This document shows, piece after piece, positions 3,337 through 32,000 of a stretch of 32,000 nucleotides of DNA. How positions within the stretch are numbered: the first letter of the stretch is position 1; the number at the start of each line of letters is the position of its first letter. Position numbers and translations under genes: made by a program. The notes under the pieces were generated by a model that saw only the letters and a program-made list of their open reading frames with translations, did not search any database and had not been told where the DNA came from. This DNA is from Parasynechococcus marenigrum WH 8102 (lineage in GTDB: Bacteria; Cyanobacteriota; Cyanobacteriia; PCC-6307; Cyanobiaceae), in NCBI RefSeq assembly GCF_000195975.1, contig NC_005070.1, positions 960,001 to 992,000 of the forward strand. Reading direction: 5' to 3'.

Positions 3337-3401
3337 AGCTGCGGTGGGTTCACTTCATCATGCGGTCGCGATTGGGTTGCGCCAACCCGTTGAACTGTAA
3401 A

Positions 3402-3414: not shown

Positions 3415-3428
3415 CTCATGCGAGTGTC

Positions 3429-8868: not shown

Positions 8869-8927
8869 GTCCACTCATTGCTGAGCGCTAATCCGCGATC
8901 CAGGTTGTTGTCAGTGAATGCACTGCG

Positions 8928-9233: not shown

Positions 9234-9261
9234 TGGCTTTGCCGCCAGGTTTTGAGTTGCG

Positions 9262-11061: not shown

Positions 11062-11125
11062 GACCTGACACCTTGCTTTGTCATTGTGCGGCGATCGCTA
11101 AGGAAACTTTGACGCAGCCGACCAA

Positions 11126-11246
11126 CGCTGGCCCTGGTGGTCGCTGCTGCCACTTCGCTCTCAGTTGCAGAACAAGGTCGAAGGGCTTGTCCCTGAGTTG
11201 TCCCTCGTTTTTTGTGCAATTGGGCTGGATGGTGTGCAACTTAGTT
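11126..11246 (+). repeat. Boundary repeat copy A (core 26 nt plus ~95-nt shared arm)
   Basis: CGCTGGCCCTGGTGGTCGCTGCTGCC (11126-11151) matches 13117-13142 and 31975-32000. The following ~95 nt (..CTTGTCCCTGAGTTGTCCCT..TTTTGTGCAATTGGGCTGGATGGTGTGCAA..) align by eye with 13143-13238. Sequence upstream of 11126 is unrelated to the other copies. Confidence 0.75.
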
Positions 11247-11308
11247 CCTTATTCACTCCCGCTTGATTTAGTCCTAGTGATTAACCGGTGCATCACCACA
11301 ACCTCTTT

Positions 11309-11629
11309 TTAAATCGTTTGATCGGTGCCAGCCGTGTTCAGTAAGCCCCAAGAATTGGCTTGGGGTGTCTCCAGCCGATCTAGGTCTTTGAGCTCTCTCG
11401 ATAAGGACCCACAGCAGCCTTGACCAACAAACTCATCACCGCCGTGAACGCAGTGCCAGCGACTCACATCCTCGGCACCGAGCAGAAACAGCACGGTCGT
11501 GATGGCACTGCGCTGCTGGCCATCGGGCCTTGTGACCTGAATGGAGCTCCGTTGCACTTCCCGATACCAACCGCCTTCTGGATGAGGCTGCAGCCGCCAA
11601 CGGGCCACGAGGGAGTCCATCAAGTCCAA
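11309..11629 (-). CDS. DUF985 (cupin-like) protein, apparently C-terminally truncated or diverged
   Basis: The N-terminal 65 aa (WRLQPHPEGGWYREV....SAITTVLFLL....SRWHCVHGGDE) match the DUF985 pattern. The remaining 40 aa have no cupin-like character, and the ORF is shorter than I would expect for the family. Confidence 0.45.
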   Translation of the reverse strand: MDLMDSLVARWRLQPHPEGGWYREVQRSSIQVTRPDGQQRSAITTVLFLLGAEDVSRWHCVHGGDEFVGQGCCGSLSRELKDLDRLETPQANSWGLLNTAGTDQTI

Positions 11630-11660
11630 CGCTGATCAGAACGCAGGCCGCCAACGTTGG

Positions 11661-11696
11661 CACAACAAAAAGCCCCCACCGATTGGTGAGGGCTTT
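11661..11696 (-). terminator. Rho-independent terminator downstream of psbA
   Basis: On the minus strand: AAAGCCCTCACC-AATC-GGTGGGGGCTTT, a 12-bp stem with one G-U pair, followed by TTTTGTTGTG. It lies about 60 nt after the psbA stop. Confidence 0.65.
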
Positions 11697-11754
11697 CCGA
11701 TTCAGTTGATCTGAATCGCTTGTTCTATTCCCGAGGGAACAGGTTGATTCCAGA

Positions 11755-12834
11755 TCAACCGATGGCAGGAGCCTGCAGAGCCACAGGAGTGGACTCAGCA
11801 GCAGCCAGGTCGAGGGGGAAGTTGTGAGCGTTGCGCTCGTGCATCACTTCCATGCCGAGGCCGGCACGGTTCAACACGTCGGCCCAGGTGTTCAGGACGC
11901 GGCCCTGACCATCAAGGATGGACTGGTTGAAGTTGAAGCCATTCAGGTTGAAGGCCATGGTTGACACGCCCAGGGCGGTGAACCAGATACCGACAACAGG
12001 CCAGGCAGCCAGGAAGAAGTGGAGGCTACGGCTGTTGTTGAAGGAGGCGTATTGGAAGATCAGGCGACCGAAGTAACCGTGGGCAGCCACGATGTTGTAG
12101 GTCTCTTCCTCTTGGCCAAACTTGTAGCCGTAGTTCTGGGACTCGGTCTCGGTGGTTTCACGCACCAGGGAGGAGGTCACCAGGGAGCCATGCATGGCGG
12201 AGAACAGGGAGCCACCGAACACACCTGCAACACCCAGCATGTGGAAGGGGTGCATCAGGATGTTGTGCTCAGCCTGGAACACCAGCATGTAGTTGAACGT
12301 GCCGGAGATGCCCAGGGGCATGGCGTCAGAGAAGGAGCCCTGACCGAAGGGGTAGACCAGGAAGACTGCAGAGGCAGCAGCGACAGGTGCGCTGTAGGCG
12401 ACGCAGATCCAGGGGCGCATGCCCAGGCGGTAGGAGAGTTCCCACTCACGACCCATGTAGGCGTAGATGCCGATCAGGAAGTGGAAGACGACGAGCTGGA
12501 AAGGACCGCCGTTGTACAGCCACTCATCGAGAGAAGCGGCTTCCCAGATGGGATAGAAGTGCAGGCCGATGGCATTGCTGGAAGGAACAACAGCACCAGA
12601 GATGATGTTGTTGCCGTAGATCAGGGAGCCAGCGACAGGCTCGCGGATGCCATCGATGTCAACCGGAGGAGCGGCGACGAAAGCGATGACGAAGCAGATG
12701 GTGGCAGCCAGCAGGGTGGGGATCATCAGCACACCGAACCAACCGACATAAAGACGGTTGTTGGTGGAGGTGACCCACTCGCAGAAGGCCTGCCAGCTGG
12801 AAGCGCCGGAGCGCTGCTGGAGGGTGGTGGTCAT
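11755..12834 (-). CDS. psbA: Photosystem II reaction-centre protein D1, Glu130 (D1:2-type) isoform
   Basis: 359-aa translation is unmistakably D1 (MTTTLQQR...[18 protein letters not shown]...HNFPLDLAA...). Counting residues gives ...YMGRE(130)[12 protein letters not shown], i.e. Glu at position 130. Confidence 0.97.
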
Positions 12835-13035
12835 GAGAACGGAAAGAAGCCGGTGGGATGAATCCCGGTGGCAGATAAGAAAAGTCGGTTACCCGACCTC
12901 AGTAATGTAAAGGAAGTTTGCGGCGCCAGCACGAAACCCGGCCCGAGCACTCCTGATGAGATCGATAGGCTCCGCTTATCAGCTGCCCATGGTGCGCTTC
13001 GGAGCGATCTGGGATGAAGTGATCGGCCCGATGAA

Positions 13036-13238
13036 TGCCCTGATCCTTTCCTCTGCAGAATCACTGCGTTAATGGGGAGCATGGTGGCTGGAGCTGGTGT
13101 GAATCCTGCTGATCAGCGCTGGCCTTGGTGGCCGCTGCTGCCATTTAGCTACCAGTTACGGGAACAGGTCTGAGGGCCTTGTCCCTGAGTTGTCCCTGGA
13201 ATTTTGTGCAAGTGGGCTGGATTGTGGGCAAGTGAGTT
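13036..13238 (+). repeat. Boundary repeat copy B (full segment plus shared arm); contains a 33-codon relic ORF at 13072-13173
   Basis: 13036-13142 align nearly base for base with 31893-32000 (..CAGAATCACTGC.TT.ATGGGGAGCATGGTGGC.GGAGCTGG.GTGAATCCTGC.GATCAGCGCTGG....TGGCCGCTGCTGCC). 13143-13238 align with copy A 11152-11246. The reading frame MGSMVAGAGVNPADQRWPWWPLLP continues only 9 codons further to a TGA. Confidence 0.8.
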
Positions 13239-13279
13239 AGGGCTCTGGCTTCATTTAGAAAATGTTTTGTGATGTCAGA

Positions 13280-13909
13280 TCAGATGAGATCGGGCTGATA
13301 GGTGATGAGATCGTCGTGATTGATGTTGAGGAGTGTTGTTTTGATGTTGTGTTCTGAGTCTTTGAGGAGGAGGTGATTGCCGCGTTGGATGAGTTGAAGA
13401 TTGAGGTTGTTGGGAGCATTGATGAGATCGCCTTCAGTGATGGAGAAATCACGGATGGTGTCGTTGCCTTTGGAGAGCTTGAAGGTGTCAGAGCCTTTAG
13501 CGCCGGTGAGGGTGTCTTGGCCTTTGCCGCCAAAGAGGGTGTCGTCGCCAGAGCCGCCATGGAGGCTGTCGTGATACAGCTGACCTTTGAGGAGGTCATC
13601 ACCTGAGGAACCCCTAAGGGTGTCTTGACCTCTGCCGCCTTTAAGAGTGTCGTCGCCCCTGCCTGCATTGAGGTGATCGCGTCCTTGTCCGCCGAAAAGC
13701 AAGTCGGTTTGAGGTCCGCCTTTGAGGGTGTCGTTGTCGGCCCCACCGGTGATCAGATCTTGCCCGCGTCCACCGATGAGCAGGTCATCTCCACCGGCTG
13801 AACCGATGGTGTCGTTGCCTCCTCCGAGAACAATGATCTGCGCAGAGTCATCGGCGTAAACGACATTGCTGCCGCTGCCACCAGTGATTTCGACTGATCC
13901 AATAATCAC
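13280..13909 (-). CDS. RTX (hemolysin-type calcium-binding) repeat domain, in frame with and probably the detached C-terminus of the upstream giant adhesin
   Basis: About ten GGxGxDxLx-type nonapeptides (GGGNDTIGS, GGDDLLIGG, GRGQDLITG, GADNDTLKG ...). The track start is GTG 13909. The frame is open upstream to 13978 and continuous with the 2230-aa ORF apart from one TAG at 13979-13981. Confidence 0.75.
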   Translation of the reverse strand: MIIGSVEITGGSGSNVVYADDSAQIIVLGGGNDTIGSAGGDDLLIGGRGQDLITGGADNDTLKGGPQTDLLFGGQGRDHLNAGRGDDTLKGGRGQDTLRGSSGDDLLKGQLYHDSLHGGSGDDTLFGGKGQDTLTGAKGSDTFKLSKGNDTIRDFSITEGDLINAPNNLNLQLIQRGNHLLLKDSEHNIKTTLLNINHDDLITYQPDLI

Positions 13910-13978
13910 TGCGAAGTCAATGTTGTCGAGTTGAATTTCAGTGCCACTGGGTAAATTGGAGAGGTCGATAATGAAGGC

Positions 13979-16900
13979 CTAAGTCTGATCGTCGCCCGTT
14001 GAGCTGCCCGAGCTACCTGTGAAGACGATGGGTTGCTCCAGATTGGTGGATGTGGTGGTGGGGACGATGGTTCGAACATCGACTTGGGTGGAATCCGGAA
14101 GTTGGTTAATGAAATTATTGACGTTCCCGATCAGGTCATCTGTGGTTTCAGTTTCGCTATTGAGTTGTTGGATTGATTCTGTAAGGCTTTCCTGGGCTTC
14201 TTCAGAGGATTGAGCATCGGCTGATCCTTCTGACGTGATCGACACACCAGGCGGGAGTGTGACAGTGACGAGGTTGTCGTTGCTGGCGGTGTTTTCAACG
14301 AGTGTGGCGATGCCGGTTTGTGTGGAGGAGGTGTTGGTGAAGGTCTGGGAGTCATCACCCGAATCTGAGGTTTCGTCATCGGTTGCTGAAGACGTTGACG
14401 CGATGATGATGAGACCGGATTCATCCTCGACGGCCTCATCGATGGTGAGGCTGATGGTTTGGGTTTCCTTGTTGCCATCGCCATCAGTAACTTCAACGGT
14501 GAAGGAATCAGAACCGTTGAAGTCTGCGTTTGGTGTGTAGGTCCAAGCGCCAGTGGTGGCGTTGATGGAAGCGGTGCCGCTAGTTGCTGCAGAGGAAACG
14601 GTGAAGTTGGGTGTGGAGTCTCCGTCTGCGGCATCCGTGAAGCTGAGGGTGCCGGTGATGGTGACGCCTTCTGCACCGGATGTGCTGGTATCACCACCAA
14701 AGGAGCCGGCGTCATTTTGTTGGTTGATGGTGACACTGACGGTGGCTGTTTCTGTCACGCCACCGGATGTGACCGTGTAAGTAAAGGAATCAGAGCCGTT
14801 GAAGTGTTCGTTGGGTGTGTATTTCAGGGTGCCTGCATCGGCATCAACGATTTCAACGGAGCCATTGGAGCCTTGGGAGATCGCTGAAATGGCGTGAGAG
14901 CCATCAAAGGAATCATTGCTGAGGACGTTGTAGGTGAGAGTGGCGTCCTCATTGAGCGAGAAGGAATCAGCAACGATGTCATCAGCGGCGTTGACGGTTA
15001 GGGAGATAACTTGCGTTTCATTGTTGTTGTCGTCGTCAGTGACTTGAACGGTGACGGCAGTGGAGAGGCTGAGGGTTGCCGCGGAGATATCTGTGGTGTT
15101 TCCGTTGGTTGAGACATCAACGGTGGAGGCGTCAGCACGATCGGGACCACTGCCCGCGAAGCCAGCCGTGAAAGCCGGCGCGGCCGAGGTGCCGGTGTTG
15201 TTGAAATAAACAGTGTTGCCGTCGTTGTTGCCAATGAAGGCATCGAGATCACCGTCGGCATCGATGTCCGCGAAGTCCGGAGCGGAGCGGGAGCCAACAT
15301 CGCTGATCCCGAAGGGATTGGTGGTGGAACCACCAGAGAAGTCAGGTGCAGCCGAGGTGCCGGTGTTTTGAAAGAAAACAGTTAGGCCACGAATGTCACC
15401 GATCAAGGCATCGAGATCACCGTCGCCATCGATGTCCGCGAAGTCCGGATTGGAGCGGTCGCCAACATCGCTGATCCCGAAGGGATTGGTGGTGGAACCA
15501 GCGGAGAAGTCGGGAGCAGTTGATGTGCCGGTGTTTTGGAAGAAAACGGTGTTGCCGTCGTTGTTGCCAATGAAGGCATCAAGATCACCGTCGCCATCGA
15601 TGTCTACAAATTCCGGAGCGACGTAGTAGCCAAACTTTTCAAGCCCGAAGGGATTGGTGGTGGAACCGCCAGAGAAGTCGGGAGCGGCAGATGTGCCGGT
15701 GTTTAAGAAGAAAAGAGTGTCGCCGAACGTCCGATACCCTCTGTTGCCAATGAAGGCATCGAGATCACCGTCGCCATCGATATCTACAAAGTCCGGACGG
15801 GCTTCATAGCGACCACTCCCGCTTACTGCGCTGATCCCGAAGGGATTGGTGGTGGAACCGCGAGAGAAGTCAGGAACGGCCGAGGTGCCGTTGTTTTGGA
15901 AGAAAACAGTGTTGCCGTCGTAGTTGCCAATGAAGGCATCGAGATCACCGTCAGCATCGATGTCCGCGAAGACCGGAGCGGCGTTGCTGCCAACATCGCT
16001 GATCCCGAAGGGATTGATCGATGGGGATGAGGCCGCAGGGATGCCGGCTGAGTTATCAATCAGCCGAGTGGTGAGTGCTCCGGGCGTGCCGCTGAAGTCG
16101 GCAGCGGGAAGAAAGCGGAGCTTGGCGTCTGTGGTGAGATAAAGCGCGGTGGCATCGGCCAGTCCTGTGGTGGCAATGGCGGTCCAGTTGCTGCCGTCAT
16201 CAGTGGAGTATTGCCAGGCGCCTTGTGATGCGGTGGCGGCATTGGCGGTGATGGCGATGCCAACGAGGCTGTCGCCGTCGACATCGGAGAACGAGGAGGA
16301 AAACAGATTGGCAACGGTGTCGCCGACGGGATCGGTGCTGTCTTCTGAGATGGCGGCGAGGGATGGACTGCCGCTGGTGACTGGAGCATCATTAACAGCG
16401 GTGACGGTGATGGTGGAGGTCACCGCAGAAGAATCGGTATCGCCGTCATTCACAAGCCAGGAGATGGTGCGATCGGCGGTGTTGGGGTTATCTGAAGTGT
16501 TGTTGTAAGTGACGGATTCGAGAGCCGCTTTGTAGTTAGCGAGGCTGTCGGAACCGGTAAGGGTCAGGACGCCTGTGGATGCATTCCAGGAGCCTGAAAT
16601 TGAGGAGGTATCTAAGAAGGCGAGGACATCTTCTGCGGATTGGAAACCAGAGGAGATGGAGACGGTGGCCGATTCGATGTTGGTGTCATCGGCATCGGTG
16701 ATGGTGAGGGAAGAGTCGATTGGGGTAGCGCCATCCTCTTCTGAGAAGGCGAGAGTGGCTGAAGCTCCAGAGATGACGGGAGCGTTATTAACGGCCGTGA
16801 CGGTGATGGTGGAGGTCACCGCAGAAGAGTTGGTATCGCCATCATTGACAACCCAGGAAATGGTGCGATCGGCGGTGTTGGGATTATCTGATGTGTTGTT

Positions 16901-19900
16901 GTAGGTGACAGATTCGAAAGCCGCCTTGTAGTTCGCGAGGCTGTCGGAACCGGTGAGGGTGAGGACGCCTGTGGATGCATTCCAGGAGCCCGTGATTGCG
17001 GAGGTATCGGAGAAGGCGAGGACATCTTCTGCGGATTGGAAACCAGAGGAGATGGAGACGGTGGCCGATTCGATGTTGGAGTCGTCGGCATCGGTGATGG
17101 TGAGGGAGGAGTCGATGATTGTGGCGCCATTGCCTTCTGAGAAGGCGAGAGTGGCTGAGGCACCGGCGATGACGGGAGCGTCGTTAACAGCAGCGACGCT
17201 GATGGTGGAGGTCACCGCAGAAGAATTGGTGTCGCCGTCATTGACGACCCAGGAGATGATGCGATTGGAGGTATTGGGTGTATCGGACGTGTTGTTGTAG
17301 GTGACGGATTCCAGAGCCGCCTTGTAATTGGCAAGGGTGCCGGAACCGGTGAGGGTGAGGACGCCTGTGGATGCATTCCAGGAGCCTGAAATTGAGGAGG
17401 TATCTAAGAAGGCGAGGACATCTTCTGCGGATTGGAAACCTGAGGAGATGGAGACGGTGGCCGATTCGATGTTGGTGTCATCGGCATCGGTGATGGTGAG
17501 GGAAGAGTCGATTGGGGTAGCGCCATCCTCTTCTGAGAAGGCGAGAGTGGCTGAAGCTCCAGAGATGACGGGAGCGTTATTAACGGCCGTGACGGTGATG
17601 GTGGAGGTCACCGCAGAAGAGTTGGTATCGCCATCATTGACAACCCAGGAAATGGTGCGATCGGCGGTGTTGGGATTATCTGATGTGTTGTTGTAGGTGA
17701 CAGATTCGAAAGCCGCCTTGTAGTTCGCGAGGCTGTCGGAACCGGTGAGGGTGAGGACGCCTGTGGATGCATTCCAGGAGCCCATGATTGCGGAGGTATC
17801 GGAGAAGGCGAGGACATCTTCTGCGGATTGGAAACCAGAGGAGATGGAGACGGTGGCCGATTCGATGTTGGAGTCGTCGGCATCGGTGATGGTGAGGGAG
17901 GAGTCGATGATTGTGGCGCCATTGCCTTCTGAGAAGGCGAGAGTGGCTGAGGCACCGGCGATGACGGGAGCGTCGTTAACAGCAGCGACGCTGATGGTGG
18001 AGGTCACCGCAGAAGAATTGGTGTCGCCGTCATTGACGACCCAGGAGATGATGCGATTGGAGGTATTGGGTGTATCGGACGTGTTGTTGTAGGTGACGGA
18101 TTCCAGAGCCGCCTTGTAATTGGCAAGGGTGCCGGAACCGGTGAGGGTGAGGACGCCTGTGGATGCATCCCAGGAACCTGTGATTGCGGAGGTATCTAAG
18201 AAAGCGAGGACATCTTCTGTGGATTGGAAACCAGAGGAGATGGTGATGGTGGCCGATTCGATGTTGGAGTCATCGGCATCGGTGATGGTGAGGGAAGAGT
18301 CGATTGGGGTAGCGCCATCCTCTTCTGAGAAGGCGAGAGTGGCTGAAGCTCCAGAGATGACGGGAGCGTCGTTAACAGCAGCGACGCTGATGGTGGAGGT
18401 CACCGCAGAAGAATTGGTGTCACCGTCATTGACGACCCAGGAGATGATGCGATTGGAGGTATTGGGGTTATCGGACGTGTTGTTGTAAGTGACGGATTCG
18501 AGAGCCGCTTTGTAGTTCGCGAGGCTGTCGGAACCGGTAAGGGTGAGGACGCCTGTGGATGCATTCCAGGAGCCTGAAATTGAGGAGGTATTGGAGAAGG
18601 CGAGGACATCTTCTGCGGATTGGAAACCAGAGGAGATGGAGACGGTGGCCGATTCGATGTTGGTGTCATCGGCATCGGTGATGGTGAGGGAGGAATCAAT
18701 AACAGTGGCGCCATTGCCTTCTGTGAAAGCAAGGGTGCTGCCGGCACCGGTGATTGTGGGTGAGTCATTAACAGCGGTGACGGCCGTGGAAAGGCTGAGG
18801 GTTGCCGCGGAGATATCTGTGGTGTTGCCGTTGGTTGAGACATCAATGGTGGAGGCGTTGGTGGAGGCGTTGGCACGAGCGGATCTTCCCGCGAAGCCAG
18901 CCGCGAAAGCCGGCGCGGAAGAGGTGCCGGTGTTGTGGAAGAAAACAGTGTTGCCCCAGCGGTCGCCAATGAAAGCATCGAGAAGTCCGTCGCCATCGAT
19001 GTCCGCGAAGACCGGTGCGGCCGCTAGGCCAACATTGCTGATCCCAAAGGGATTGGCAGTGGAATCGTCAGTGAAGTCCGGCGCGGCCGAGGTGCCGGTG
19101 TTGTTGAAGAAAGCAGTGGTGCCGTCGGTGCCGCCAATAAAAGCATCGAGATCACCGTCGCCATCGATATCAACAAAGTCCGGCGCGGCGCGGGTGCCAA
19201 CATCGCTGATCCCGAAGGCACTGGTGGTGGAACCGCCAGAGAAGTCGGGAGCGGCCGAGGTACCGGTGTTTAGGAAGAAAACGGTTGTGCCGTTGATTTG
19301 GCCAATGAAGGCATCGAGATCACCGTCAGCATCGATGTCCGCGAAGACCGGAGTGGAGCGGTCGCCAACATCTGCAAGCCCGAAGGGATTGGTGGTGGAA
19401 CCGCCAGAGAAGTCGGGAGCGGCCGAGGTGCCGGTGTTTAGGAAGAAAACGGTGTTGCCGACTGAGTTGCCAATGAAGGCATCGAGATCACCGTCGCCAT
19501 CGATATCTACAAAGTCCGGAGAGGCGTAGAAGCCAACATCTGCAAGTCCGAAGGGATTGGTGGTGGAACCGCCAGAGAAGTCGGGAGCGTCCGAGGTGCC
19601 GTTGTTTTGGAAGAAAACAGTGTTGCCGTGGTTGTTGCCAATGAAGGCATCGAGATCACCGTCGCCATCGATGTCTACAAAGTCCGGAGCGATGTAGTTG
19701 GCAGCATCTGCAAGCCCGAAGGGATTGATCGATGGGGATGAGGCCGCAGGGATGCCGGCTGAGTTATCAATCAGCCGAGTGGTGAGTGCTCCGGGCGTGC
19801 CGCTGAAGTCGGCAGCGGGAAGAAAGCGGAGCTTGGCGTCTGTGGTGAGATAAAGCGCGGTGGCATCGGCCAGTCCTGTGGTGGCAATGGCGGTCCAGTT

Positions 19901-20671: not shown

Positions 20672-20674
20672 ATT

Positions 20675-20703
20675 TTTATAATTTAAATCTACTTGAAATT
20701 CAA
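20675..20703 (-). promoter_or_regulatory. Candidate sigma70-type promoter in the AT-rich spacer upstream of the giant gene
   Basis: The minus strand reads TTGAAT, then a 17-nt spacer, then TATAAA, inside a 99-bp strongly AT-rich gap (20672-20770) that contrasts with the flanking GC-rich coding DNA. The -10 element ends only 3 nt before the TTG used by the ORF track. Confidence 0.4.
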
Positions 20704-20770
20704 AAGTGTGTAGTAAATATTTCGTTTTTGTTTGATTTATCCTGGTTAAAAAACGAGGATCGCGAAGTCG

Positions 20771-23557: not shown

Positions 23558-25572
23558 CGTTGCTGAGCTCCGGCGGTCTTCAGGGTGAGTTGGCTAGAGC
23601 GGGCCGACGTCACCGATTTGAGGTGTGCTCCGAGATGACGATCCACCAGGCGCAGCATCGCCTGGCTGTGGGGTGCCACCGCCGCGCGCGCAATGGGAAT
23701 GCCGGCAGCGTGCTGTTGGCGGAAGGCATGGACGAGCAGCGTTAACGCCTGGCCGCGGGGGCGGTGGCCTTTGGCCACAAACAGCGAACTGATGCGGGTG
23801 GCGTTGGCGCTGGTGCGATCCACCAACACCCATCCCACGACGTTGCCGTGGTGCAGCAGCGCCAGCGAGGCCTGGGCTTCCAGTTGGCTGCTCTGCATGG
23901 CTGCGGTGAGGTTGTCTCCAGCCGGAAACTGCGCTGCGACGTCGGCGTAGTCGGCGCGCCAGGGCACCAGTTGATAGCCCGCAGGGAAGAGAAAGCGTTC
24001 GGGCCAGTTCATCGAGGCGAGTTGTGCGGCCTGGCCCTCCAGCAGCAGAAAGGTCTGCCGTGGCGGCGACCAGCCGAGCCGTGGTAGCAGGCGATCCAGT
24101 GGGCCGGGCTGGCGATGGGGAGCCTGATAACTCACCGAGAGACTTGTCTGACTCTGCTGCGTGAGAAATACGCTGAGGTGGGCGATCAAACGGGTGCCGA
24201 TGCCCTGGCGCCGCTGGGGTGGGCTGACACAGAGCGAGACGAGACGTGCATTGCCCTCTGGTGTGCACTCCGCCAGAGCCAGACCCACCAGGGTGCCGTT
24301 CTGGTTGGCGGCGATCCCCAGCAGTTCGCCCTTGAGCTTGCGCCACGCAGCCGAACCTGGTGCCAGGGAGGGATAGGTGAGGGACGCGAAGGGGGCGAGG
24401 GTGGCTTCTGTGAGCTGGAAGACCCGCTGGTAGTGAACGGCGGTGCCGTCTGCGGGGGTGGGCTGGGGCAGGCCAAGGCGCTCCACTGCCGGGCCCTGGT
24501 GGGGTGTGCCGCTGGGGATGGAGGGTTTGATCCGCACCAGGTTGTCCTGCTGGGGCAGTTTCACCAGGCAGTCGATGGCGTCATCGACCAGGCCAAGGGC
24601 CTTGGGTTGCCGGCAGTTCTCCAGAACGGCCAGATCGAAGAGCTCGTCGATTGGTTCCGGTAGATCGAGGCTGTGCAGCACGTTGCCGCTGGCGAGATCA
24701 ATCACGCGAATGCCGCAGCATCCCTTGGGCTGGCCACTGGTCTGCAAGCTCTCCTCCAGGGGCAGCCCGGTGAACTGGGGCGAGCGCAGCTTGGACAGCC
24801 CCACCACGGCGCAGCCACCTGCGAAGGCCAGCCCCCGCACGAAGCCCGGCAAGGTGCAGAGCGGCTGGAAGCGCTCCTGCTCGATCCATCCCAGCTCGCC
24901 GGTGCCGGAATTGAGCAGCCAAAGCTTGTCTTGGTACCAGCGGGGTGAGTGGGGCATGGTGAGCCCCCTGGTGGTGATGGAGCCGGTGGGGATGTGCACC
25001 ACCACACCGCCTTCCTGGCGCGTGTTGCGCCAACTGGTGGGTGTGTTGCCGGCACTGCATGCTGTGGCCCAGGTGATCTCGCCGTTCTTGAGGGCGACGC
25101 CATTGAGGTGGCAGCGGTCTTCCGGTTTGAGGGCATCGATGAAGGGCGGCTGCCACACCGGCCGGAAGCTGCAGCCCGGTGTGAGCTCCGCCAGACAACT
25201 GAACACCGTGTTCACAAACAGCGGTGCCCCCTCGGCGGTGAGCACGAGTTCGTGGGCATTCACCTCGCCGGTGAGGAAGCTGGCCGCAGGCGTGTAAAGG
25301 CGATCGGCACCGTCATGGTGCTGGCCTGGTGCGAGCAGGTTGTCGAAACGCCAGAGATGGGAGCGGCCCGCCATCCAGAGGCTTTGACCGCTGGTGAACA
25401 ATCCCATCGGGCGGTCATAGAGCCGCTCATGAACGCGGAGGGTCTGACTGTGATCCACGCCAAGGAAGATCAGCCGGTTGGCGCGGTAGGTGGAGAGGGC
25501 CAGGGAGATGCCCTGTTGGCTCAGCCAGGTTGCAAGTTCCGGGTTGAAGCTGGCTGGGGTCTGCAGGGTCAC
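23554..25572 (-). CDS. Fusion protein: TIGR03032/DUF4915-like N-terminal domain plus two GNAT acetyltransferase-like domains
   Basis: The N-terminal ISLALSTYRANRLIFLGVD...RPMGLF...LWRFDNLL matches my recollection of the uncharacterised TIGR03032 family. The C-terminal third has two acetyl-CoA-binding-type motifs (VSPPQRRQGIGTRLI and VAKGHRPRGQALTLL). Confidence 0.65.
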   Translation of the reverse strand: MTLQTPASFNPELATWLSQQGISLALSTYRANRLIFLGVDHSQTLRVHERLYDRPMGLFTSGQSLWMAGRSHLWRFDNLLAPGQHHDGADRLYTPAASFLTGEVNAHELVLTAEGAPLFVNTVFSCLAELTPGCSFRPVWQPPFIDALKPEDRCHLNGVALKNGEITWATACSAGNTPTSWRNTRQEGGVVVHIPTGSITTRGLTMPHSPRWYQDKLWLLNSGTGELGWIEQERFQPLCTLPGFVRGLAFAGGCAVVGLSKLRSPQFTGLPLEESLQTSGQPKGCCGIRVIDLASGNVLHSLDLPEPIDELFDLAVLENCRQPKALGLVDDAIDCLVKLPQQDNLVRIKPSIPSGTPHQGPAVERLGLPQPTPADGTAVHYQRVFQLTEATLAPFASLTYPSLAPGSAAWRKLKGELLGIAANQNGTLVGLALAECTPEGNARLVSLCVSPPQRRQGIGTRLIAHLSVFLTQQSQTSLSVSYQAPHRQPGPLDRLLPRLGWSPPRQTFLLLEGQAAQLASMNWPERFLFPAGYQLVPWRADYADVAAQFPAGDNLTAAMQSSQLEAQASLALLHHGNVVGWVLVDRTSANATRISSLFVAKGHRPRGQALTLLVHAFRQQHAAGIPIARAAVAPHSQAMLRLVDRHLGAHLKSVTSARSSQLTLKTAGAQQR

Positions 25573-25629
25573 GTGGCTTTGAAGCGTGTTAGCGGGTGAC
25601 GGGTGTGGAGATCAGACTGATCGGTTGGC

Positions 25630-26361
25630 TCAATTTGCGTTGTAGATGGCTTTCTGTTCCCAGAGCGCGTTGTGGTCATTGGTGCCGATGGCTCCCATTT
25701 GCTCAAGGGTTTGGCGGAATCCTTGTCTGCTGGTTGGTTTGTAAAAACCTGCGATCTGGCCGTTTGGTAACACCATGGCGCGGTTCTTGATTTCGTGCTG
25801 CGGGCTGAGCTCGATGAAGTCTCCAAAGACGGTGGAGCTGGCAACTCCTTCTTCGCAGATGGCACGGCCCCAGACATTTGGGCCCGTTGGGAAAAATGGT
25901 GTGTAGCCGTAGTAGTTGCTTTCGCAGTTGTGCGTGATGATGTCGATCGCCCGTCGCAAGACAGGGTGGCCTGCTTGTGCATAAAACAAACCGTTAGCGA
26001 CGGACCAAGAGGCATAGTGGGTCAGCCTTGGGTTTTCTCTGAACGCAGCAAGTTTGATTCGAGGCTCAAACTGAACACCTGGAAAAGGGCAGTAAAAGCC
26101 AATATCGAAATACCAACCTCCGACGGCATAAACAATGCAAAGTCTCGCTAAATCTGATTTGTAGGCATATGGAATCAGCTTGTTGTATGCAGCACTCACG
26201 CGGCTGTCAAAGTGTTCATTCATCAGGGCCTGGATGTCCCTGTCGCCATAAAGAACATGCGTTAAGTGAGCAAAAGCTCGCCTTACGCTGGCGATGTACC
26301 GCTGCAGCAGCGCAGGCGGCTCAGCGTTGTTGTCGGAGAGATAGATCTGCGTGACTTGCAT
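25630..26361 (-). CDS. Glycosyltransferase with a DXD sugar-binding region (GT32 / Gly_transf_sug-like)
   Basis: 243 aa. LIPYAYKSDLARLCIVYAVGGWYFDIG resembles the conserved A/K-SD-x-x-R...GG-x-Y-x-D core of OCH1/GT32-type transferases. Same strand as the neighbouring transferase genes and tightly spaced with them. Confidence 0.6.
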   Translation of the reverse strand: MQVTQIYLSDNNAEPPALLQRYIASVRRAFAHLTHVLYGDRDIQALMNEHFDSRVSAAYNKLIPYAYKSDLARLCIVYAVGGWYFDIGFYCPFPGVQFEPRIKLAAFRENPRLTHYASWSVANGLFYAQAGHPVLRRAIDIITHNCESNYYGYTPFFPTGPNVWGRAICEEGVASSTVFGDFIELSPQHEIKNRAMVLPNGQIAGFYKPTSRQGFRQTLEQMGAIGTNDHNALWEQKAIYNAN

Positions 26362-26377
26362 GGCGTCGCGTTAGCAC

Positions 26378-28096
26378 TCAGGAATGTCTGGCGAGATGGT
26401 GTTGCTGGCGTAGGGCCGGCAGGAAACTGGGATCGATTGCAAGGGCGCGCAGGCAGGCGGCCTGCGCCTCTGGCCACTGGCCCTGACGGCTGAGCAGGAT
26501 CGACTGGTTGGTGTGGCCGTGCACGTGATCGGGATGGGCATGCAGCAGTCGCTCCAGGCAGAACGCGGCCTGCTCACTGTTTCCCTGGCGTTGCAGCAGC
26601 GTGGCCAGCTGCAGCAGGGCGCCGTTGTGGCTGGGGAGTTGATCGAGAATCGCGCGGTAGTGCCGCTCTGCAGCGGCTGAATTGCCCCGGCGTTCGAGCA
26701 GGCGCGCCGCAGCAAAGGTTCGTTGATGCGGCCGCTCCAGCCCGCGCCGGGGCCGCAGCGCCAGGGGATCGAGCTGATGAGCAGTGCGGAATGCCCGGCT
26801 GGCCTGTTCTGACTGGCCCTGTTTTTCGGCGCACACCCCCAGGAAGGTGTGGGCAGGGGCATGGTCAGGTTCATTCTGAATCGCCGCTTGGAGGTGTTCT
26901 GTTGCTGCCGACCAGTGGCCGCCCTGCAGCGCCTTGAGGCCTTTGGCGAAGCCCTGATCAGCATTGCTGCTCAGTTTCAGGCGGCAGTGGCGCTCGCCGA
27001 TCCGTTTCCATCCGGGGATTTGCGTGAGCGTCCGCTCGCGCTGCTGCTCAAGCGGAGCTGGCAAGGGGCCCGGCACGGAATTGCTCTGTTGGAGCAGGCC
27101 TATATAAAACGTCTGGCGTTCAACCACGGCGGTTTGGATGTCGCGGTTGGTGCTCACGTAGGCATGGGCACGGCGGGCCTGTTCCAGCCGTTGCTCTGGG
27201 TTCTGCACCAGGCCTTCGAGCTGCTGGATCATCGCCTCTGGACTGTCAAACAGGCTCGCTAGATCAGTTGCAGCGAGGGCCTGGTAGGGGGTTTCGTTCT
27301 GGAGCACGGCCGCTGCACCGGCCGCCGCATACTCCAGGAATTTCACATCGGAGCGGCAACGGTTGTAGTCCGTGGGCAGCAGAGGAGCCAGGCCGATGTG
27401 CAGGCTGTTCAGCCAGCTGCGGTAGTGATCAAGGCTTCCTGGCTTGCGGATCAGCACGTGCTCCTCGGCCCTTCCCTCGAAGACAGCTGCCAGAGATGGA
27501 TCAGCCATGATCTCGAGCTGAACATCGCTCTGCTGAGGCAACCACTGCAGCAGCGCTGGTGCGATGTGGCGCAGGTCCTCTAAGTGGCCGATCGATCCAC
27601 CCCAGCCGATCCGCAGCGGCCGGCCATCAGCACGATGTTTCAGCTCATCGAAGCCGGGGATGGCATCAAGGTGATTCGGCAAGACAACGGCCGAGCGGGC
27701 CTGTTGCTGCAGCCGGTCAGCCAGTCCGCCGGAGCTGAACTGGCAGGCATCAGCGTTGTGGATCAGGCCGTGGAAGAGCTTCTGGCCACGGGGATCATGC
27801 CAGGAGCCGGCAGCAGGATTCCAAGCCTGCACATCGGGGAGATAGTCATTGACTTCCACCACGGTGGGCCGGCCCAGCAGGCGGCGTTGGCGGATCAGCC
27901 GGAAGGCCTCCAGATCCAGGGTCATCGTGAGCACGAGCAGGTCGGCGGCCAGGGCGGCGGCGTCGCGGTAACGGGCATCTGGATGCACCTCGAACACCTC
28001 CACTCCCGGCAGGGCGGCCAGGGCGGCAGCGGGCTGATGCATGCGGTAATGCTGATCACCGCTGCTACCGAAGCTGCCGATCAAAACAATGCGCAT
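26378..28096 (-). CDS. GT-B-like glycosyltransferase domain fused to C-terminal TPR repeats
   Basis: 572 aa. The N-terminal ~340 aa have a Rossmann-like alternation and ...RSDVKFLEYAAAGAAAV..., reminiscent of GT-B C-terminal domains. The C-terminal ~200 aa are TPR-like (ATEHLQAAIQNEPDHAPAH..., AERHYRAILDQLPSHNGAL..., AAFCLERLLHAHPDHVHGH...). First gene of the minus-strand cluster. Confidence 0.65.
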   Translation of the reverse strand: MRIVLIGSFGSSGDQHYRMHQPAAALAALPGVEVFEVHPDARYRDAAALAADLLVLTMTLDLEAFRLIRQRRLLGRPTVVEVNDYLPDVQAWNPAAGSWHDPRGQKLFHGLIHNADACQFSSGGLADRLQQQARSAVVLPNHLDAIPGFDELKHRADGRPLRIGWGGSIGHLEDLRHIAPALLQWLPQQSDVQLEIMADPSLAAVFEGRAEEHVLIRKPGSLDHYRSWLNSLHIGLAPLLPTDYNRCRSDVKFLEYAAAGAAAVLQNETPYQALAATDLASLFDSPEAMIQQLEGLVQNPEQRLEQARRAHAYVSTNRDIQTAVVERQTFYIGLLQQSNSVPGPLPAPLEQQRERTLTQIPGWKRIGERHCRLKLSSNADQGFAKGLKALQGGHWSAATEHLQAAIQNEPDHAPAHTFLGVCAEKQGQSEQASRAFRTAHQLDPLALRPRRGLERPHQRTFAAARLLERRGNSAAAERHYRAILDQLPSHNGALLQLATLLQRQGNSEQAAFCLERLLHAHPDHVHGHTNQSILLSRQGQWPEAQAACLRALAIDPSFLPALRQQHHLARHS

Positions 28097-28337
28097 GGTG
28101 CTCAGCTAGGGGTGGCGTTGATCACGGTTTGCAGGGGTGCAGGCCAGCCGGGTTCGATTTGGCTTGAGCCGGTGGACCTGTCGTTGGGCGTGGTTAATGC
28201 CGGCGACAACAGCCTCGATGTCGCAACCCAGCTCAAGGATGGTGCGGGCTTGAGTCGGGATGCGCTCAAGGGGGGGCAGTGCGTGAAGGCACTTCTCGCG
28301 GCTCAAAGACACTCTGATGCCAATCAGCAGAAGCGCC

Positions 28338-28442
28338 TGCCCACGATCCATTCCTCATCAGAATCACTGCATCGATAGTGAGCGTTGTTGCTGGTAAGTA
28401 TGAATCCTGGAGATCAATGCTGATGTTTCTTGGCGTTGCTAC
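28338..28442 (+). repeat. Boundary repeat copy D (full length, decayed)
   Basis: TGCCCACGATCCATTCCTCATCAGAATCACTGCATCGATAGTGAGCGTTGTTGCTGG...GAATCCTGGAGATCAATGCTGATGTTTCTTGGCGTTGCTAC aligns along its whole length with copy C (31893-32000). It carries many substitutions and in-frame stops. Confidence 0.6.
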
Positions 28443-28787
28443 TAATTAATTGTATTCACTAATAGACAGCTTGAAATTCTTGTGCCTGATGTGTTTCTTT
28501 TGTTCTGTGTGCCTGTTTAATTCATGATGAAGCTCGACATGATGGCCTTCTATGAGTTTGCGGCTCTCTGAGCTAGCAAAGAAATTAATGGTTGCACAGT
28601 AAATTCTGCTTTTCTTGGGCGCAAGTTGATATTTGGGATTCAAATTAATTATGTCTTTCAGACTTCCAACTATCTGTGGATCTTTCAATAAATTGCAGGC
28701 TCGGCTTTGCGGGCAGCCAGTGGCTTCGGCAAAGCAGGCACTACCACCCTCGTTTCTTCTAGCTTTGTTGTAGGAAAGGTTCAACAC

Positions 28788-29504
28788 ATGTTTTCTGGCT
28801 GGACCTCGATGCAACGTGATCGGCAGCCCGAAGTCATGGATCAGCCGGGGCTCGATCCAGCCGAGCACGACCGAGCCCTTCAAGGTCTTCGTCGTATCAA
28901 TGGAATCAGTCGCTGTGTGCCAGGGCTGTTTCGTCACGTAGAGGCGCTCGCAGGTGAGAGTCCAGCCACTCAGCTGAGCGTGCTTGAGCTGGCTTGCGGA
29001 GGTGGCGATACGGCGATTGAGCTCGCTGCGCTCGCCCGTGGACGCGATTTGGATGTATTGGTTCAAGCCTGCGATCTGAATCCTGAAGCGGTGCGTCTCG
29101 CCCGCCGCAATGTGGCCAGATCAGACAGCAACGTTGGTGTGTTTGTTGCTGATGCTTTGGACCCGTCCGAATCCAAACAATTTGACGTGGTGTACTGCAC
29201 CCTTTTTGTTCACCATCTCGATCCACCCGATGTGGTGCGCCTACTCAAAGGGATGACAGCTAGGGCTCGTCGACTTGTGATTGTCGATGATCTAATCCGC
29301 AGCCGTCTTGGGTATTCCTTGGCTTGGATGGGTACACGACTGCTGAGTCGATCCTGGGTGGTTCATCACGATGGTCCACTGTCGGTGAAGGGAGCTTTTA
29401 CTCCTTCAGAGATCCTGGACCTCGCCTCTCAAGCTGGATTGCACGATTGTGTCTTGGAACGGACCTGGCCCGAGCGCTACCGGCTCTGCTGGAGACCCCA
29501 CTGA
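28788..29504 (+). CDS. Class I SAM-dependent methyltransferase
   Basis: A start at ATG 28788 (or 28809) gives ...RDRQPEVMDQPGLDPAEHDRALQGLRRIN, followed by motif I VLELACGGGD and DVVYCTLFVHHL. The track ORF start (28707) lies in non-coding-looking AT-rich DNA. The stop TGA at 29502-29504 is 1 nt before the next gene. Confidence 0.8.
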   Translation: MFSGWTSMQRDRQPEVMDQPGLDPAEHDRALQGLRRINGISRCVPGLFRHVEALAGESPATQLSVLELACGGGDTAIELAALARGRDLDVLVQACDLNPEAVRLARRNVARSDSNVGVFVADALDPSESKQFDVVYCTLFVHHLDPPDVVRLLKGMTARARRLVIVDDLIRSRLGYSLAWMGTRLLSRSWVVHHDGPLSVKGAFTPSEILDLASQAGLHDCVLERTWPERYRLCWRPH

Positions 29505-29505
29505 C

Positions 29506-30651
29506 ATGCAAAGCAATTGGGATGTCATCGTGATTGGGGCAGGAGTTGCCGGAGGCTTGGCAGCCTTCGATTGTGCAAATCGCGGCCTGCGAGTTCTGCT
29601 CGTCGAAAAACGGTCCTTCCCTCGCTGGAAGGTGTGTGGTTGCTGCTTTAACGCCAATGCCTTGGCAGCTCTGACTGCCACAGGCCTCCCGAACTTCTTT
29701 GATGATCAGGGTGCCGTGCCCCTCGATCAACTTCGTCTTGGTTGGGGTGGCAAGTCCCTCAAGCTTGAGTTGCCAGGCGGTTGGGCACTTTCGCGGGAGC
29801 GCTTCGATCAGGCTTTGGTCAACGCGGCTGAGGCTGCTGGTGCAACATTGCGCTTTCAAACCGGTGCCGTGCTTGAGGAGAGCACTCCCGATGGGCGAAT
29901 GGTGCGATTACGACCGCCGGGTGATGCTCCCATTGAACGGATCAGGGCCCGTGTGGTTCTCGTTGCAGCCGGACTGCAGCACCAGGTGATGTCCCCCTCC
30001 CATGCGGCCAGCTCGAGGAGCACCCCGGAATCGAGGCTTGGGGCAGGCTGCCTCATCAATGATGACGACAGCTCCTACGAGTCAGGGGCGATTCATATGG
30101 CCATTGGCCAGCGTGGCTACGTCGGCTTGGTTCGACGTGAGGACGGTGCTCTCAACCTGGCGGCCGCTTTCGACCGCGCTGTGGTCAAGTCGTCTGGCGG
30201 TGTGGCGCGTGCGGCACAACTTGTTCTGACTCAAGCCGGCTTCACTTTGCCTCGAAGATTGGAGTCGTCTCGTTGGCAATTAACTCCTGCGCTCACCCGT
30301 CGTGCTGGTTTGTTCGCAGGGGATCGCTTTTTGTTGCTTGGCGACGCGACCGGTTATGTGGAACCGTTTACCGGTGAGGGTATGGCGTGGGCTCTCGCCG
30401 CTGGGGCGGCGGTTGCTCCATTTGTGGAGGAGGCTCAGGGTGAATGGTCAGCGGATCTCGAGCGACGCTGGCAAAGGAGGTTGGTGGATCTGACGATCAG
30501 CCGTCAACGGGTTTGCAGTGTGTTGTCGACGTTGTTACGACAACCGCTCACCACAAATGCGTTGTTCAACCTTGGGTGCCAATGGCCTGCGATCCCGCAG
30601 CGCATTATTCGCAGCCTCAATCGGGTGTCTCCTCTGATGGCGAGTTCCTAA
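29506..30651 (+). CDS. FAD-dependent oxidoreductase / flavoprotein monooxygenase-like
   Basis: A start at ATG 29506 gives MQSNWDVIVIGAGVAGGLAAFDCANRGLRVLLVEKR, a GxGxxG dinucleotide fold. A later LLLGDATGYVEPFTGEGM motif is typical of the FAD-binding GD motif in this family. Confidence 0.85.
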   Translation: MQSNWDVIVIGAGVAGGLAAFDCANRGLRVLLVEKRSFPRWKVCGCCFNANALAALTATGLPNFFDDQGAVPLDQLRLGWGGKSLKLELPGGWALSRERFDQALVNAAEAAGATLRFQTGAVLEESTPDGRMVRLRPPGDAPIERIRARVVLVAAGLQHQVMSPSHAASSRSTPESRLGAGCLINDDDSSYESGAIHMAIGQRGYVGLVRREDGALNLAAAFDRAVVKSSGGVARAAQLVLTQAGFTLPRRLESSRWQLTPALTRRAGLFAGDRFLLLGDATGYVEPFTGEGMAWALAAGAAVAPFVEEAQGEWSADLERRWQRRLVDLTISRQRVCSVLSTLLRQPLTTNALFNLGCQWPAIPQRIIRSLNRVSPLMASS

Positions 30652-30654
30652 ACC

Positions 30655-31743
30655 ATGCCTCTCATCCTTCATGGCATTGGTACTGCGGTGCCATCTCGGC
30701 GACTGAGCCAGGCAGATGCCGTGCAGGTGGCACATCGCATCAATGCCGAAACCCCTGAGCAGGTAAGGCTGATGACACGCATCTATCAGAAAACCAAGGT
30801 GCTCAGCCGTGGAAGTGTGCTGCTGGAGAAGGATGGAGACGATGGCACGATCCAGGAGCGTCTCAGTTTCTACGGCGAAGAAAGCCCTGGTACCGCCGAA
30901 CGGATGCAGGCGTTTGAGGATCATGCCGGTGAGCTGGCTCTTGAGGCCGCTGCAAAGGCGCTAAGCGATAGCGATATCTCAGCCACGGCGATCACGCATC
31001 TCGTCACTGTCAGTTGCACCGGTTTTCAGTCACCAGGTGTTGACCTTTTCTTGATTGAAAAGCTTGATCTATCGCCGAGTGTTCAGCGAACCCATATCGG
31101 ATTCATGGGATGCCACGCTGCGCTGAATGGCTTGCGTGTTGCCCACGCCTTTGCGGAGATGGATCCCAAGGCTGTTGTTCTGCTGTGCGCTGTAGAGCTT
31201 TGCAGCCTCCATATGGCTTATGGCTGGCACCCAGAGCAGGTTGTTGCCAACGCTTTGTTTGCCGATGGGGCGGCTGCCGTTGTCGCCTCCGTCAATCCTT
31301 CCCCTACACATCAGACCTTGGCGTTGCGACGCAGTGGCTCGATGGTGATTCCAAACAGCTCAGATCTGATGCACTGGGAGATTGGCGACCATGGTTTTGC
31401 GATGGGCTTGTCGCCCCTTGTTCCGGAAACGGTTGGCGCTGCCTTGTTGCCCTGGTTGCGAGATTGGCTCAAAGAGCAGGCCATTGATCTTGAGGCGGTG
31501 ACGAGCTGGGCTGTTCATCCAGGGGGCCCCAAGATTCTCTCGACCTGTGCCGAGGTTTTGTCGCTGGACCCAGGCCTACTGCACGAGTCCAGAGGAATAC
31601 TTCAGGATCACGGCAACATGTCATCCGCAACGATCCTGTTCATCCTTGAAAGGTTGAGGCGGCGGGAATGTTCCGGTCCTTGTCTTGCACTGGCCTTTGG
31701 CCCTGGGCTGAGTGCTGAGGTAGCACTTTTTGATTTTCAATAA
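30655..31743 (+). CDS. Type III polyketide synthase (chalcone synthase superfamily)
   Basis: 362 aa. Catalytic Cys context HLVTVSCTGFQSPG, His context WAVHPGGPKIL and Asn context QDHGNMSSATILF together make the Cys-His-Asn triad signature. Starts 3 nt after the flavoprotein stop. Confidence 0.9.
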   Translation: MPLILHGIGTAVPSRRLSQADAVQVAHRINAETPEQVRLMTRIYQKTKVLSRGSVLLEKDGDDGTIQERLSFYGEESPGTAERMQAFEDHAGELALEAAAKALSDSDISATAITHLVTVSCTGFQSPGVDLFLIEKLDLSPSVQRTHIGFMGCHAALNGLRVAHAFAEMDPKAVVLLCAVELCSLHMAYGWHPEQVVANALFADGAAAVVASVNPSPTHQTLALRRSGSMVIPNSSDLMHWEIGDHGFAMGLSPLVPETVGAALLPWLRDWLKEQAIDLEAVTSWAVHPGGPKILSTCAEVLSLDPGLLHESRGILQDHGNMSSATILFILERLRRRECSGPCLALAFGPGLSAEVALFDFQ

Positions 31744-31892
31744 CAGTCAATCTTCGTTTTGCCTGTTTCACTGCCTGAGGAATTAATACCGCATCTGAAC
31801 ATCTCTGTCTGATCAGATGATGTTTCTCGGCGATGTCACGCCCGGGTAACCCTAAGGCTTCAGTGGCGTAAATCTTTTCAATGATTTTGTGC

Positions 31893-32000
31893 TGCCTTGC
31901 CCCTTTCCTTCAGCAGAATCACTGCATTGATGGGGAGCATGGTGGCCGGAGCTGGGGTGAATCCTGCAGATCAGCGCTGGGGTTTCTGGCCGCTGCTGCC
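31893..32000 (+). repeat. Boundary repeat copy C, presumably the functional copy
   Basis: Best-conserved copy of the segment. It runs to the window edge with an open reading frame. Confidence 0.75.
31930..32000 (+). CDS. 5' end of an unidentified gene continuing beyond the window (MGSMVAGAGVNPADQRWGFWPLLP...)
   Basis: ATG at 31930 (a second ATG at 31939) opens a frame with no stop up to nt 32000. The same 5' end is found as truncated relics at 13072-13173 and, decayed, at 28338-28442. The W-x-x-WPL(L/V)P motif reminds me of DUF4336-type cyanobacterial proteins, but that is memory only. Confidence 0.4.
   Translation, partial: MGSMVAGAGVNPADQRWGFWPLL

Follow-up and report, generated by a model that had tools for sequence, protein, structure and literature searches.

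The stretch of DNA analysed here (the window) comprises 32,000 nt of Parasynechococcus marenigrum (Synechococcus) WH8102, and coordinates given without a contig name count from its start. It contains four copies, A to D, of the 5' end of a gene encoding a DUF4336 protein, arranged in the order A, B, D, C along a 21-kb genomic island, and the three intervals between them carry unrelated cargo: a cupin fragment with psbA, a glycosyltransferase/adhesin cluster and a type III polyketide synthase (PKS) cassette (Table 1). The initial annotation of the window had already proposed both the four copies and this partition, and the Pfam assignments of the genes in the intervals agreed with the latter. 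Copy C had been described as the leader and the start of a plus-strand gene leaving the window; indeed, when the sequence was extended from a contig with an identical PKS, its open reading frame (ORF) continued into the 397-aa DUF4336 protein of WH8102 (CAE07509.1), downstream of which lie the core genes DUF760, lepB, menD, menB, glgA and murF, with a YkuD protein gene between menB and glgA.

Repeat detection in the window, BLAST and degenerate patterns were consistent in recognizing the four copies. B and C were detected as a 96-nt repeat pair (88%), B, D and C as a three-copy family, and A and B as two pairs (11117-11186 with 13108-13177, and 11170-11246 with 13162-13238). By BLAST, B aligned with C over 108 nt (87% identity, E 3e-29) and A with B over 132 nt (82%), the latter alignment comprising a core and an adjoining arm. 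A degenerate 32-nt core pattern matched exactly A, B and C in the window and gave no match in 100 shuffles, and a 52-nt arm pattern matched exactly A and B, likewise with no match in shuffled sequence. In keeping with the early termination first noted for copy B, its reading frame ends at a stop codon at 13171-13173, after 33 codons. Copy D aligned over its full length, at about 77%, with the units of the leader type P1 described below; its decay and its stop codons had been recognized before, and to these we add the loss of its start codon and the decay of its arm.

Table 1. Features of the DUF4336 array in the window.
Feature	Position	Strand	Basis
Last conserved gene of the left flank (85 aa), outer boundary of the array	10804..11061	-	homolog in WH7803
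Core (O) of copy A, coding for ADQRWPWWSLLP; interpreted as the attL core of the outermost module	11117..11151	+	repeats, BLAST, pattern
P' arm of A: two TTGTCCCT (10-nt spacing) and two TGTGnGCAA (about 20-21-nt spacing)	11152..11246	+	repeats, BLAST, pattern
Module 1 cargo: truncated Cupin_5 ORF (11309-11629), psbA (11755-12834)	11309..12834	-	Pfam
Copy B: P1 leader, ATG 13072, core O 13108-13142; interpreted as a hybrid site that was once a functional 5' end	13036..13142	+	87% to C
P' arm of B	13143..13238	+	repeats, BLAST, arm pattern
Module 2 cargo: RTX, 2230-aa adhesin, GT41/TPR, DUF4915+GNAT, glycosyltransferases	13280..28096	-	Pfam
Copy D: decayed P1 leader and core (28338-28442), decayed arm (about 28443-28515)	28338..28515	+	repeats, BLAST
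Module 3 cargo: methyltransferase, FAD oxidoreductase, type III PKS	28707..31743	+	Pfam, called genes
Copy C: P1 leader, ATG 31930, core; live 5' end (read as attR) of the DUF4336 gene leaving the window	31893..32000	+	contig extension

The earlier description of copy A was correct in that it retains only the end of the repeated segment, but the core it shares with the other copies is 35 nt long rather than 26. The further arm of about 95 nt attributed to A and B is also present; this arm, however, is not gene sequence, and D keeps a decayed version of it. The proposal that A represents the original native 5' end was not supported, as the similarity of the sequence on its left to any of the leader types does not exceed that of shuffled controls; reading that sequence as a decayed native leader of the P3 type was rejected, its local alignments being no better than those of shuffles. 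When the copies were aligned with the extended gene, A, B and D were found to part from DUF4336 immediately after CTGCTGCC: past this point the gene reads on as GCTCTATCCCTATGG, whereas A, B and the decayed D enter the shared arm. Denoting the leader side as P, the core as O and the arm as P', the anatomy of A is flank-O-P', that of B and D is P-O-P', and that of C is P-O-gene, a layout that fits a tandem array of elements integrated at one attachment (att) site.

The conservation of the arm was concentrated in two pairs of helically phased direct sub-repeats, TTGTCCCTGAGTTGTCCCT with a 10-nt phase and TTTTGTGCAAnTGG...TGTGnGCAAnTG with a phase of about 20-21 nt. Matches to a regular expression for the second motif were almost confined to arms in about 350 kb of loci. 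In the P arm proximal to the integrase gene (int, see below) the TCCCT pair is direct and the GTGCAA pair inverted relative to P', and a few inverted motif matches were located just upstream of P3-type genes, beside a 407-aa ORF divergent from DUF4336. We read these sub-repeats as putative protein-binding sites. The presence of a structured RNA or of a terminator in the arm was rejected on the basis of RNAalifold (consensus energy -3 kcal/mol, no covariation), a terminator scan and Rfam, and neither promoter nor terminator scans of the arms found a match.

A scan of one genome per species identified DUF4336 in 62 loci, together with short matches to its first ~25 residues alone, one of which, in MIT S1220, lies 27 kb ahead of the full-length gene. 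Of the 14 Synechococcus genomes in which the upstream flank was complete to 10 kb, 11 had extra units (one to four copies), all of them upstream of DUF4336 and in gene orientation. WH8017 carries P-O-P' at 2333, 5437 and 7647 ahead of the gene, MIT S9451 has four units, and at least five units spanning at least 34 kb were found in MIT S1220. The O-P' junction was matched by at least 120 metagenome contigs; true arms were present in 72-73 among the matches listed, and in these contigs the units are always collinear and delimit modules of about 1-10 kb. Of the ~25 internal copies that were aligned, nearly all pass from O to P' at one and the same nucleotide, following CTGCTGCC; unlike these, the gene copies read GCTCTATCC past the junction. 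By BLAST, no unit was detected in the 10-kb downstream flanks of DUF4336 or in the Prochlorococcus loci L027-L058. Prochlorococcus was considered as an "empty site" and set aside as evidence: its DUF4336 follows an ABC-3/ABC/ZnuA cluster that has only 22-35% identity to the window genes and is itself probably paralogous to them. Two contigs, L018 and L060, bear Synechococcus DUF4336/att units and are labelled as a 'Salipiger bermudensis' metagenome-assembled genome and 'Gammaproteobacteria bacterium', respectively; they appear to be mis-binned.

Four alternative leaders precede the same core, namely P1 (MGSMVAGAGVNPADQRW), P2 (VAASSIQSEDQSW), P3 (MPGDLSATEGISAQDQSW) and P4 (MASPLSSDTNDLSGNPADQNW), and each was seen both at the gene and at internal sites. 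The DUF4336 ORFs are intact with these interchangeable leaders, and displaced, truncated 5' ends lie upstream of them. A PWW/GFW polymorphism of the core is distributed as a mosaic across leader types and across arm and gene contexts, and upstream of many P1 leaders there is the 3' end of a chromate-transporter gene, the length of which varies by strain (L062 1843-3027; L059 and L025 about 8000-8215). In MIT S9451 (L016 10029-10560) about 470 nt of unrelated sequence separate a truncated P1-O unit from the P3-O-gene downstream, which might represent either a module of very small size or a scar within the site.

The cargo between units differs in every strain within the same boundaries, which is the boundary-associated variation that the initial annotation had anticipated in relatives. 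It includes genes for Nramp, a chromate transporter, DUF1214/1254 proteins, amine oxidases and RTX or giant adhesins, as well as ptxBCD-like genes (phosphonate-binding protein, permease and 2-hydroxyacid dehydrogenase). PH41509 (L010) reads psbA-P1-O-gene, with nothing replacing the 18.8 kb of modules 2 and 3. WH7803 (L013 2877-4407) possesses the homolog of the 85-aa boundary gene and the three left-flank genes preceding it, then a decayed outermost arm (4564-4620) and cargo other than that of WH8102. The P'-then-RTX junction of copy B recurs in MIT S1220 (L061) and in L210, and RTX/adhesin homologs were located 3' of arms in L061, L024, L011, L016 and L025. On another contig (L064 178-4433), an arm is followed by the phosphonate-binding protein, permease and 2-hydroxyacid dehydrogenase genes, which look like a ptxBCD-type phosphite cluster. 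Such clusters have been reported among the cargo of tycheposons in Prochlorococcus.

The initial annotation had suggested seeking a recombinase beyond the window, and a tyrosine-recombinase-like protein of 407 aa was indeed found at the predicted place, in other strains only. In 10 contigs (L018, L024, L206-L209, L212-L215) its gene abuts the 5' end of DUF4336, divergent from it and facing the variable cargo, and the variants encoded there are 60-95% identical. The protein was recognized by eye from its translation, owing to the motifs TGAR, SKRGRNRPANL, LRTLRH and TY, and belongs to a family of 38 homolog clusters, all apparently marine and all annotated as hypothetical (the named ones being from Synechococcus KORDI-52 and MIT S9509), with only 39 representatives among 1.84 billion proteins. 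The residues R241, K272, R357 and Y390 are invariant and lie within the TGAR, SKRGRNRPxxL, LRH and TY motifs. An AlphaFold2 (AF2) model, with a predicted local distance difference test (pLDDT) score of 82.8, shows a three-stranded sheet at the N-terminus and, after it, helical and catalytic-like domains; its top Foldseek matches in the PDB, with probabilities of 0.93-1.00, were XerA, XerH, IntIA, Brujita Int and lambda Int, and these matches cover both domains. Three distant representatives reach PF00589 at 7.9e-6 (26.2 bits, under the cutoff of 27.1). We regard the 407-aa protein as a strong candidate for the missing recombinase. A phmmer search with XerD and gamma-delta resolvase over the six-frame ORFs of 64 loci returned nothing and missed this candidate, and in a Pfam screen of 133 upstream ORFs Phage_integrase was not among the recurrent families.

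The cargo beside the integrase gene differs from contig to contig: hsdMSR with NucS-like and RmuC genes in KORDI-52 (L206), a large helicase with a Mrr-type nuclease in L212, many small ORFs with helix-turn-helix (HTH) domains in L209, and a DUF3854/P-loop protein, a helicase-like protein and a LuxR-type regulator in MIT S1220 (L024). In the last of these a ~8.7-kb element is bounded by P3-O-P' (L024 about 1198-1348), with the same arm as in the window, and by int-P3-O-gene (8654-10065). A distant member of the family was found at an internal unit in L210/L211, reading int-P4-O-P'-RTX, a junction of the copy B type; L210 is read as an integrase-bearing element displaced outward by a later RTX element. 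A pseudogenized integrase copy was also present at an internal unit in L017. Directly after the integrase gene, on the opposite strand, there is a conserved ORF of ~100 aa with no Pfam match (L206 11256-11561 and L212 11300-11599, both on the minus strand), a candidate excisionase or regulator.

Our observations comprise the anatomy of the repeats, a junction that stays constant, cargo that varies, an integrase-like protein in a fixed position and one bounded element. They agree with the repeated site-specific integration at the 5' end of one gene first envisaged for this locus, and none of the three refuting conditions set out with that proposal applied. On these grounds we consider it likely that a family of integrative elements in marine Synechococcus uses the 5' end of DUF4336 as its chromosomal attachment site. 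The attP of such an element would consist of a P arm, which supplies a promoter/leader together with the initial ~12-24 codons of DUF4336, a core O that terminates with TGGCCGCTGCTGCC, and the ~95-nt P' arm. A divergent tyrosine recombinase, encoded beside the P arm and facing into the element, would recombine attP with the gene, so that oldP-O-P' would remain as the outer junction and newP-O-gene body as the inner one; DUF4336 would thus be kept intact while its promoter and N-terminus are swapped with each integration, and successive integrations would displace older elements outward, building a tandem array. Within the window, A would correspond to the attL of the module lying farthest out and C to the live attR, with hybrid sites at B and D. 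Because WH8102 lacks any member of the family, its array consists of integrase-less modules; these three would be remnants that lost an integrase or never had one, possibly movable in trans or through homologous recombination between units. Catalysis by the 407-aa protein, the crossover point and the order of events are what we infer from the comparisons made here.

Several results weigh against this interpretation. With respect to the recombinase, neither Pfam, nor the called genes, nor phmmer with XerD and the resolvase revealed one in the window, its left 11 kb included, as the initial annotation had stated; no WH8102 protein is among the 38 homolog clusters, and the 72 arm-bearing metagenome contigs among the matches listed contain no integrase. 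The 407-aa protein itself gave no Pfam match even at E<=10, PF00589 included, and no PDB sequence match. In an hhalign comparison with XerD the motifs fell at the expected places and the alignment was not significant; by this alignment and by eye, R354 and L378 seem to take the place of the two catalytic His residues. The Foldseek TM-scores were just 0.25-0.43. With respect to the elements, only leaders of the P3 and P4 types were seen beside the integrase, never P1, the type of WH8102, or P2. In KORDI-52 and L209 the 10 kb covered did not extend as far as the distal end (attL) of the element, and three scans of IMG/VR viral contigs detected no P-O-P' unit, only chance matches. The chromate-transporter remnants at P1 fit host-flank capture or homologous recombination better than a clean attP, and a strict outward age gradient is contradicted by D, which lies innermost among the internal sites and has decayed further than B. 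The leader types never seen beside the integrase, the chromate-transporter remnants, the PWW/GFW mosaicism and the decay of D suggest that homologous recombination and host-flank capture also shape the arrays.

A broader version of the proposal can be put forward only tentatively, and we are inclined to doubt it as a whole. According to it, a lineage of tyrosine recombinases invisible to Pfam would build islands at the start of a protein-coding gene, each integration would rewrite the promoter and N-terminus of DUF4336, the integrase-less modules (psbA, adhesin/glycosyltransferase and PKS) would stay mobilizable in trans via P-O-P', and the array would serve as a multi-gene cassette platform across Synechococcus clades.

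Among the alternatives, the one that best withstands the data is that the island is kept by homologous recombination, with the ~200-nt P-O-P' units acting as portable homology blocks. Modules would be gained, lost or shuffled by RecA-dependent exchange, or the whole interval would be replaced via the flanking core genes, and site-specific recombination would have no current role, at least in WH8102. The window and most arrays do lack an integrase, P1 units bear variable lengths of the chromate-transporter 3' end, the core polymorphism is mosaic, and copy B shares more identity with P1 units from other strains (up to 94%) than with copy C in its own genome (87%). However, this explanation accounts neither for the origin of the flank-O-P' and P-O-gene ends nor for the phased sub-repeats of the arm being kept across clades, and it leaves unexplained both the tyrosine-recombinase-like gene found at the site in 10 contigs with different cargo and the int-P-O-P'-RTX junction. 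As the sole explanation of the arrays we judge it unlikely.

It might also be argued that the arm and leader units are regulatory DNA, that is, promoter or transcription-factor sites of DUF4336 or of the cargo copied in local duplications, and that the 407-aa protein is a DNA-binding regulator. The occurrence of arm motifs in the intergenic sequence that separates DUF4336 from the divergently oriented 407-aa gene would agree with this, as would the missing canonical His residues and the negative Pfam result. Nevertheless, the fold matches of the protein are recombinases and extend over both domains, its nucleophile Tyr and R-K-R residues are invariant, the promoter scan was empty in the arms, and local duplication of the copies is contradicted by the unrelated cargo between units; we regard this possibility as very improbable. 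Finally, the view of the segment as a generic dispersed repeat, or as similarity arising by chance, with no tie to island boundaries has no point in its support and is scarcely credible, since the core and arm patterns never match shuffled sequence, the copies in the examined flanks lie solely upstream of DUF4336 and always in gene orientation, those of other genomes and metagenome contigs being collinear as well, and none occurs in the downstream flanks or the Prochlorococcus loci mentioned above.

Regarding the cargo of WH8102, the RTX gene that follows copy B is located at 13280-13909. The adhesin-like ORF of 2230 aa, in the interval between B and D (13979-20671, minus strand), has DUF4347, FG-GAP, cadherin-like and Big_9 domains according to Pfam and internal repeats of 6 x 396 nt and about 10 x 168 nt; N-terminal fragments of homologs recur 3' of arms in MIT S1220. 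Inside the glycosyltransferase cluster, an ORF at 23554-25572 (minus strand) has the unusual fusion of a full DUF4915 domain to a GNAT acetyltransferase. The type III PKS (30655-31743) is CAE07508.1. In WH7803 a homolog of this enzyme (L013 2-730) lies to the left of the conserved left-flank genes and outside the array, and thus the position of the PKS cassette differs between WH7803 and WH8102. The 11 kb to the left of the array contain prs, a GHL10 hydrolase gene, a znuABC-like cluster (1875-4349), a permease pair, rsmE and small conserved ORFs. Directly after the znuABC-like cluster, the ORF at 4362-5546 carries a long His/Asp-rich low-complexity stretch (repeat core 4758-4973) and weak Phage_OMP/Zip matches; it may encode a metal-binding outer-membrane protein.

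Island building in marine Synechococcus is largely unexplained outside tRNA-linked, tycheposon-like cases. The DUF4336 locus offers a concrete and testable mechanism in a model strain, with a defined att core, conserved arms and a candidate integrase missed by annotation pipelines. Natural variants represent different stages: occupied sites with an integrase (KORDI-52, MIT S1220), a displaced integrase-bearing element (L210) and integrase-less arrays (WH8102, WH8017, WH7803). The cargo found at the site is of ecological relevance, comprising psbA, giant adhesins and glycosyltransferases, a type III PKS, metal and chromate transporters, phosphite-utilization-like genes, and restriction-modification or other defence systems. 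In metagenomes, the conserved unit could serve to mark island cargo, and it might possibly be a landing pad for genetic tools.

With integrons the DUF4336 arrays share the arrangement of cargo units at one fixed site with recombination sites between them; unlike integrons, these arrays lack IntI and attI, their units do not fold as attC hairpins (-3 kcal/mol, no covariation), and the modules are multi-gene, lie in both orientations and have their own promoters. The ~230-nt unit, with a core between arms that carry phased repeated motifs, is reminiscent of a lambda-type attP, and the extra N-terminal three-stranded sheet domain in the AF2 model of the 407-aa protein recalls lambda Int. In contrast to lambda, the arm sites at DUF4336 are predicted only, and both motifs and protein are unrelated to their lambda counterparts in sequence.

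Tycheposons of Prochlorococcus, and tycheposon-like insertions at tRNA-Phe in Synechococcus, have been described (10.1101/2020.12.28.424599; PMC8995045). The DUF4336 islands are likewise picocyanobacterial islands that would arise from repeated integration at one site, with partial copies of the target between elements, an inward-facing tyrosine recombinase proposed at the att-proximal end, an optional replication module, cargo for niche adaptation or defence, and a content made up mostly of integrase-less remnant. Gene content of the tycheposon type was found in related loci, namely int, a DUF3854/P-loop protein and a LuxR-type regulator in L024, hsdMSR in KORDI-52 and a helicase with a Mrr-type nuclease in L212; in the window only the cargo was found. 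The parallel drawn at first with tycheposon-like elements, with a protein-coding target, thus stands for architecture and ecology, but not for the tRNA or tmRNA, since the target is protein-coding and ARAGORN detected no tRNA or tmRNA, and Rfam no family, in the window. In addition, the repeated piece at DUF4336 differs from that of tycheposons in being a gene 5' end plus a long P' arm.

Protein-coding targets are known from the genomic islands with DusA-associated integrases, which lie in the 5' end of dusA (PMC4482086). As in those islands, a dedicated candidate integrase lineage, a single site in the 5' end of one housekeeping gene and varied cargo are seen at DUF4336; the gene and the host group are different, as the integrase lineage appears to be, and long tandem arrays of integrase-less remnants are prominent here. 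The SXT/R391 integrative conjugative elements occupy the 5' end of prfC (PMC2791158) and form tandem arrays (PMC2786100). The proposed insertion of an element by a tyrosine recombinase into the 5' end of a conserved protein-coding gene, and the tandem occupation of one site, are common to them and to the DUF4336 islands, whereas no conjugation genes were seen at the DUF4336 arrays, the target gene, host phylum and size differ (DUF4336 modules being of 1-15 kb), and the 407-aa candidate integrase, which has no PF00589 match, appears unrelated by sequence. Hochhut and Waldor reportedly described in 1999 that SXT supplies a replacement 5' end to prfC. At DUF4336 both a replacement 5' end and a displaced 5' end, present as a direct repeat, were found, and the integrase gene adjoins the 5' end of the target in 10 contigs of other strains, not in WH8102. 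No description of the site, of DUF4336 islands, of the locus tags or of the recombinase lineage was found in the searchable literature, subscription-only papers lying outside that search. The target gene and the recombinase lineage therefore appear to be undescribed there, and the mechanism proposed for them is of a known sort, represented by SXT at prfC, by the dusA islands and by the tycheposons.

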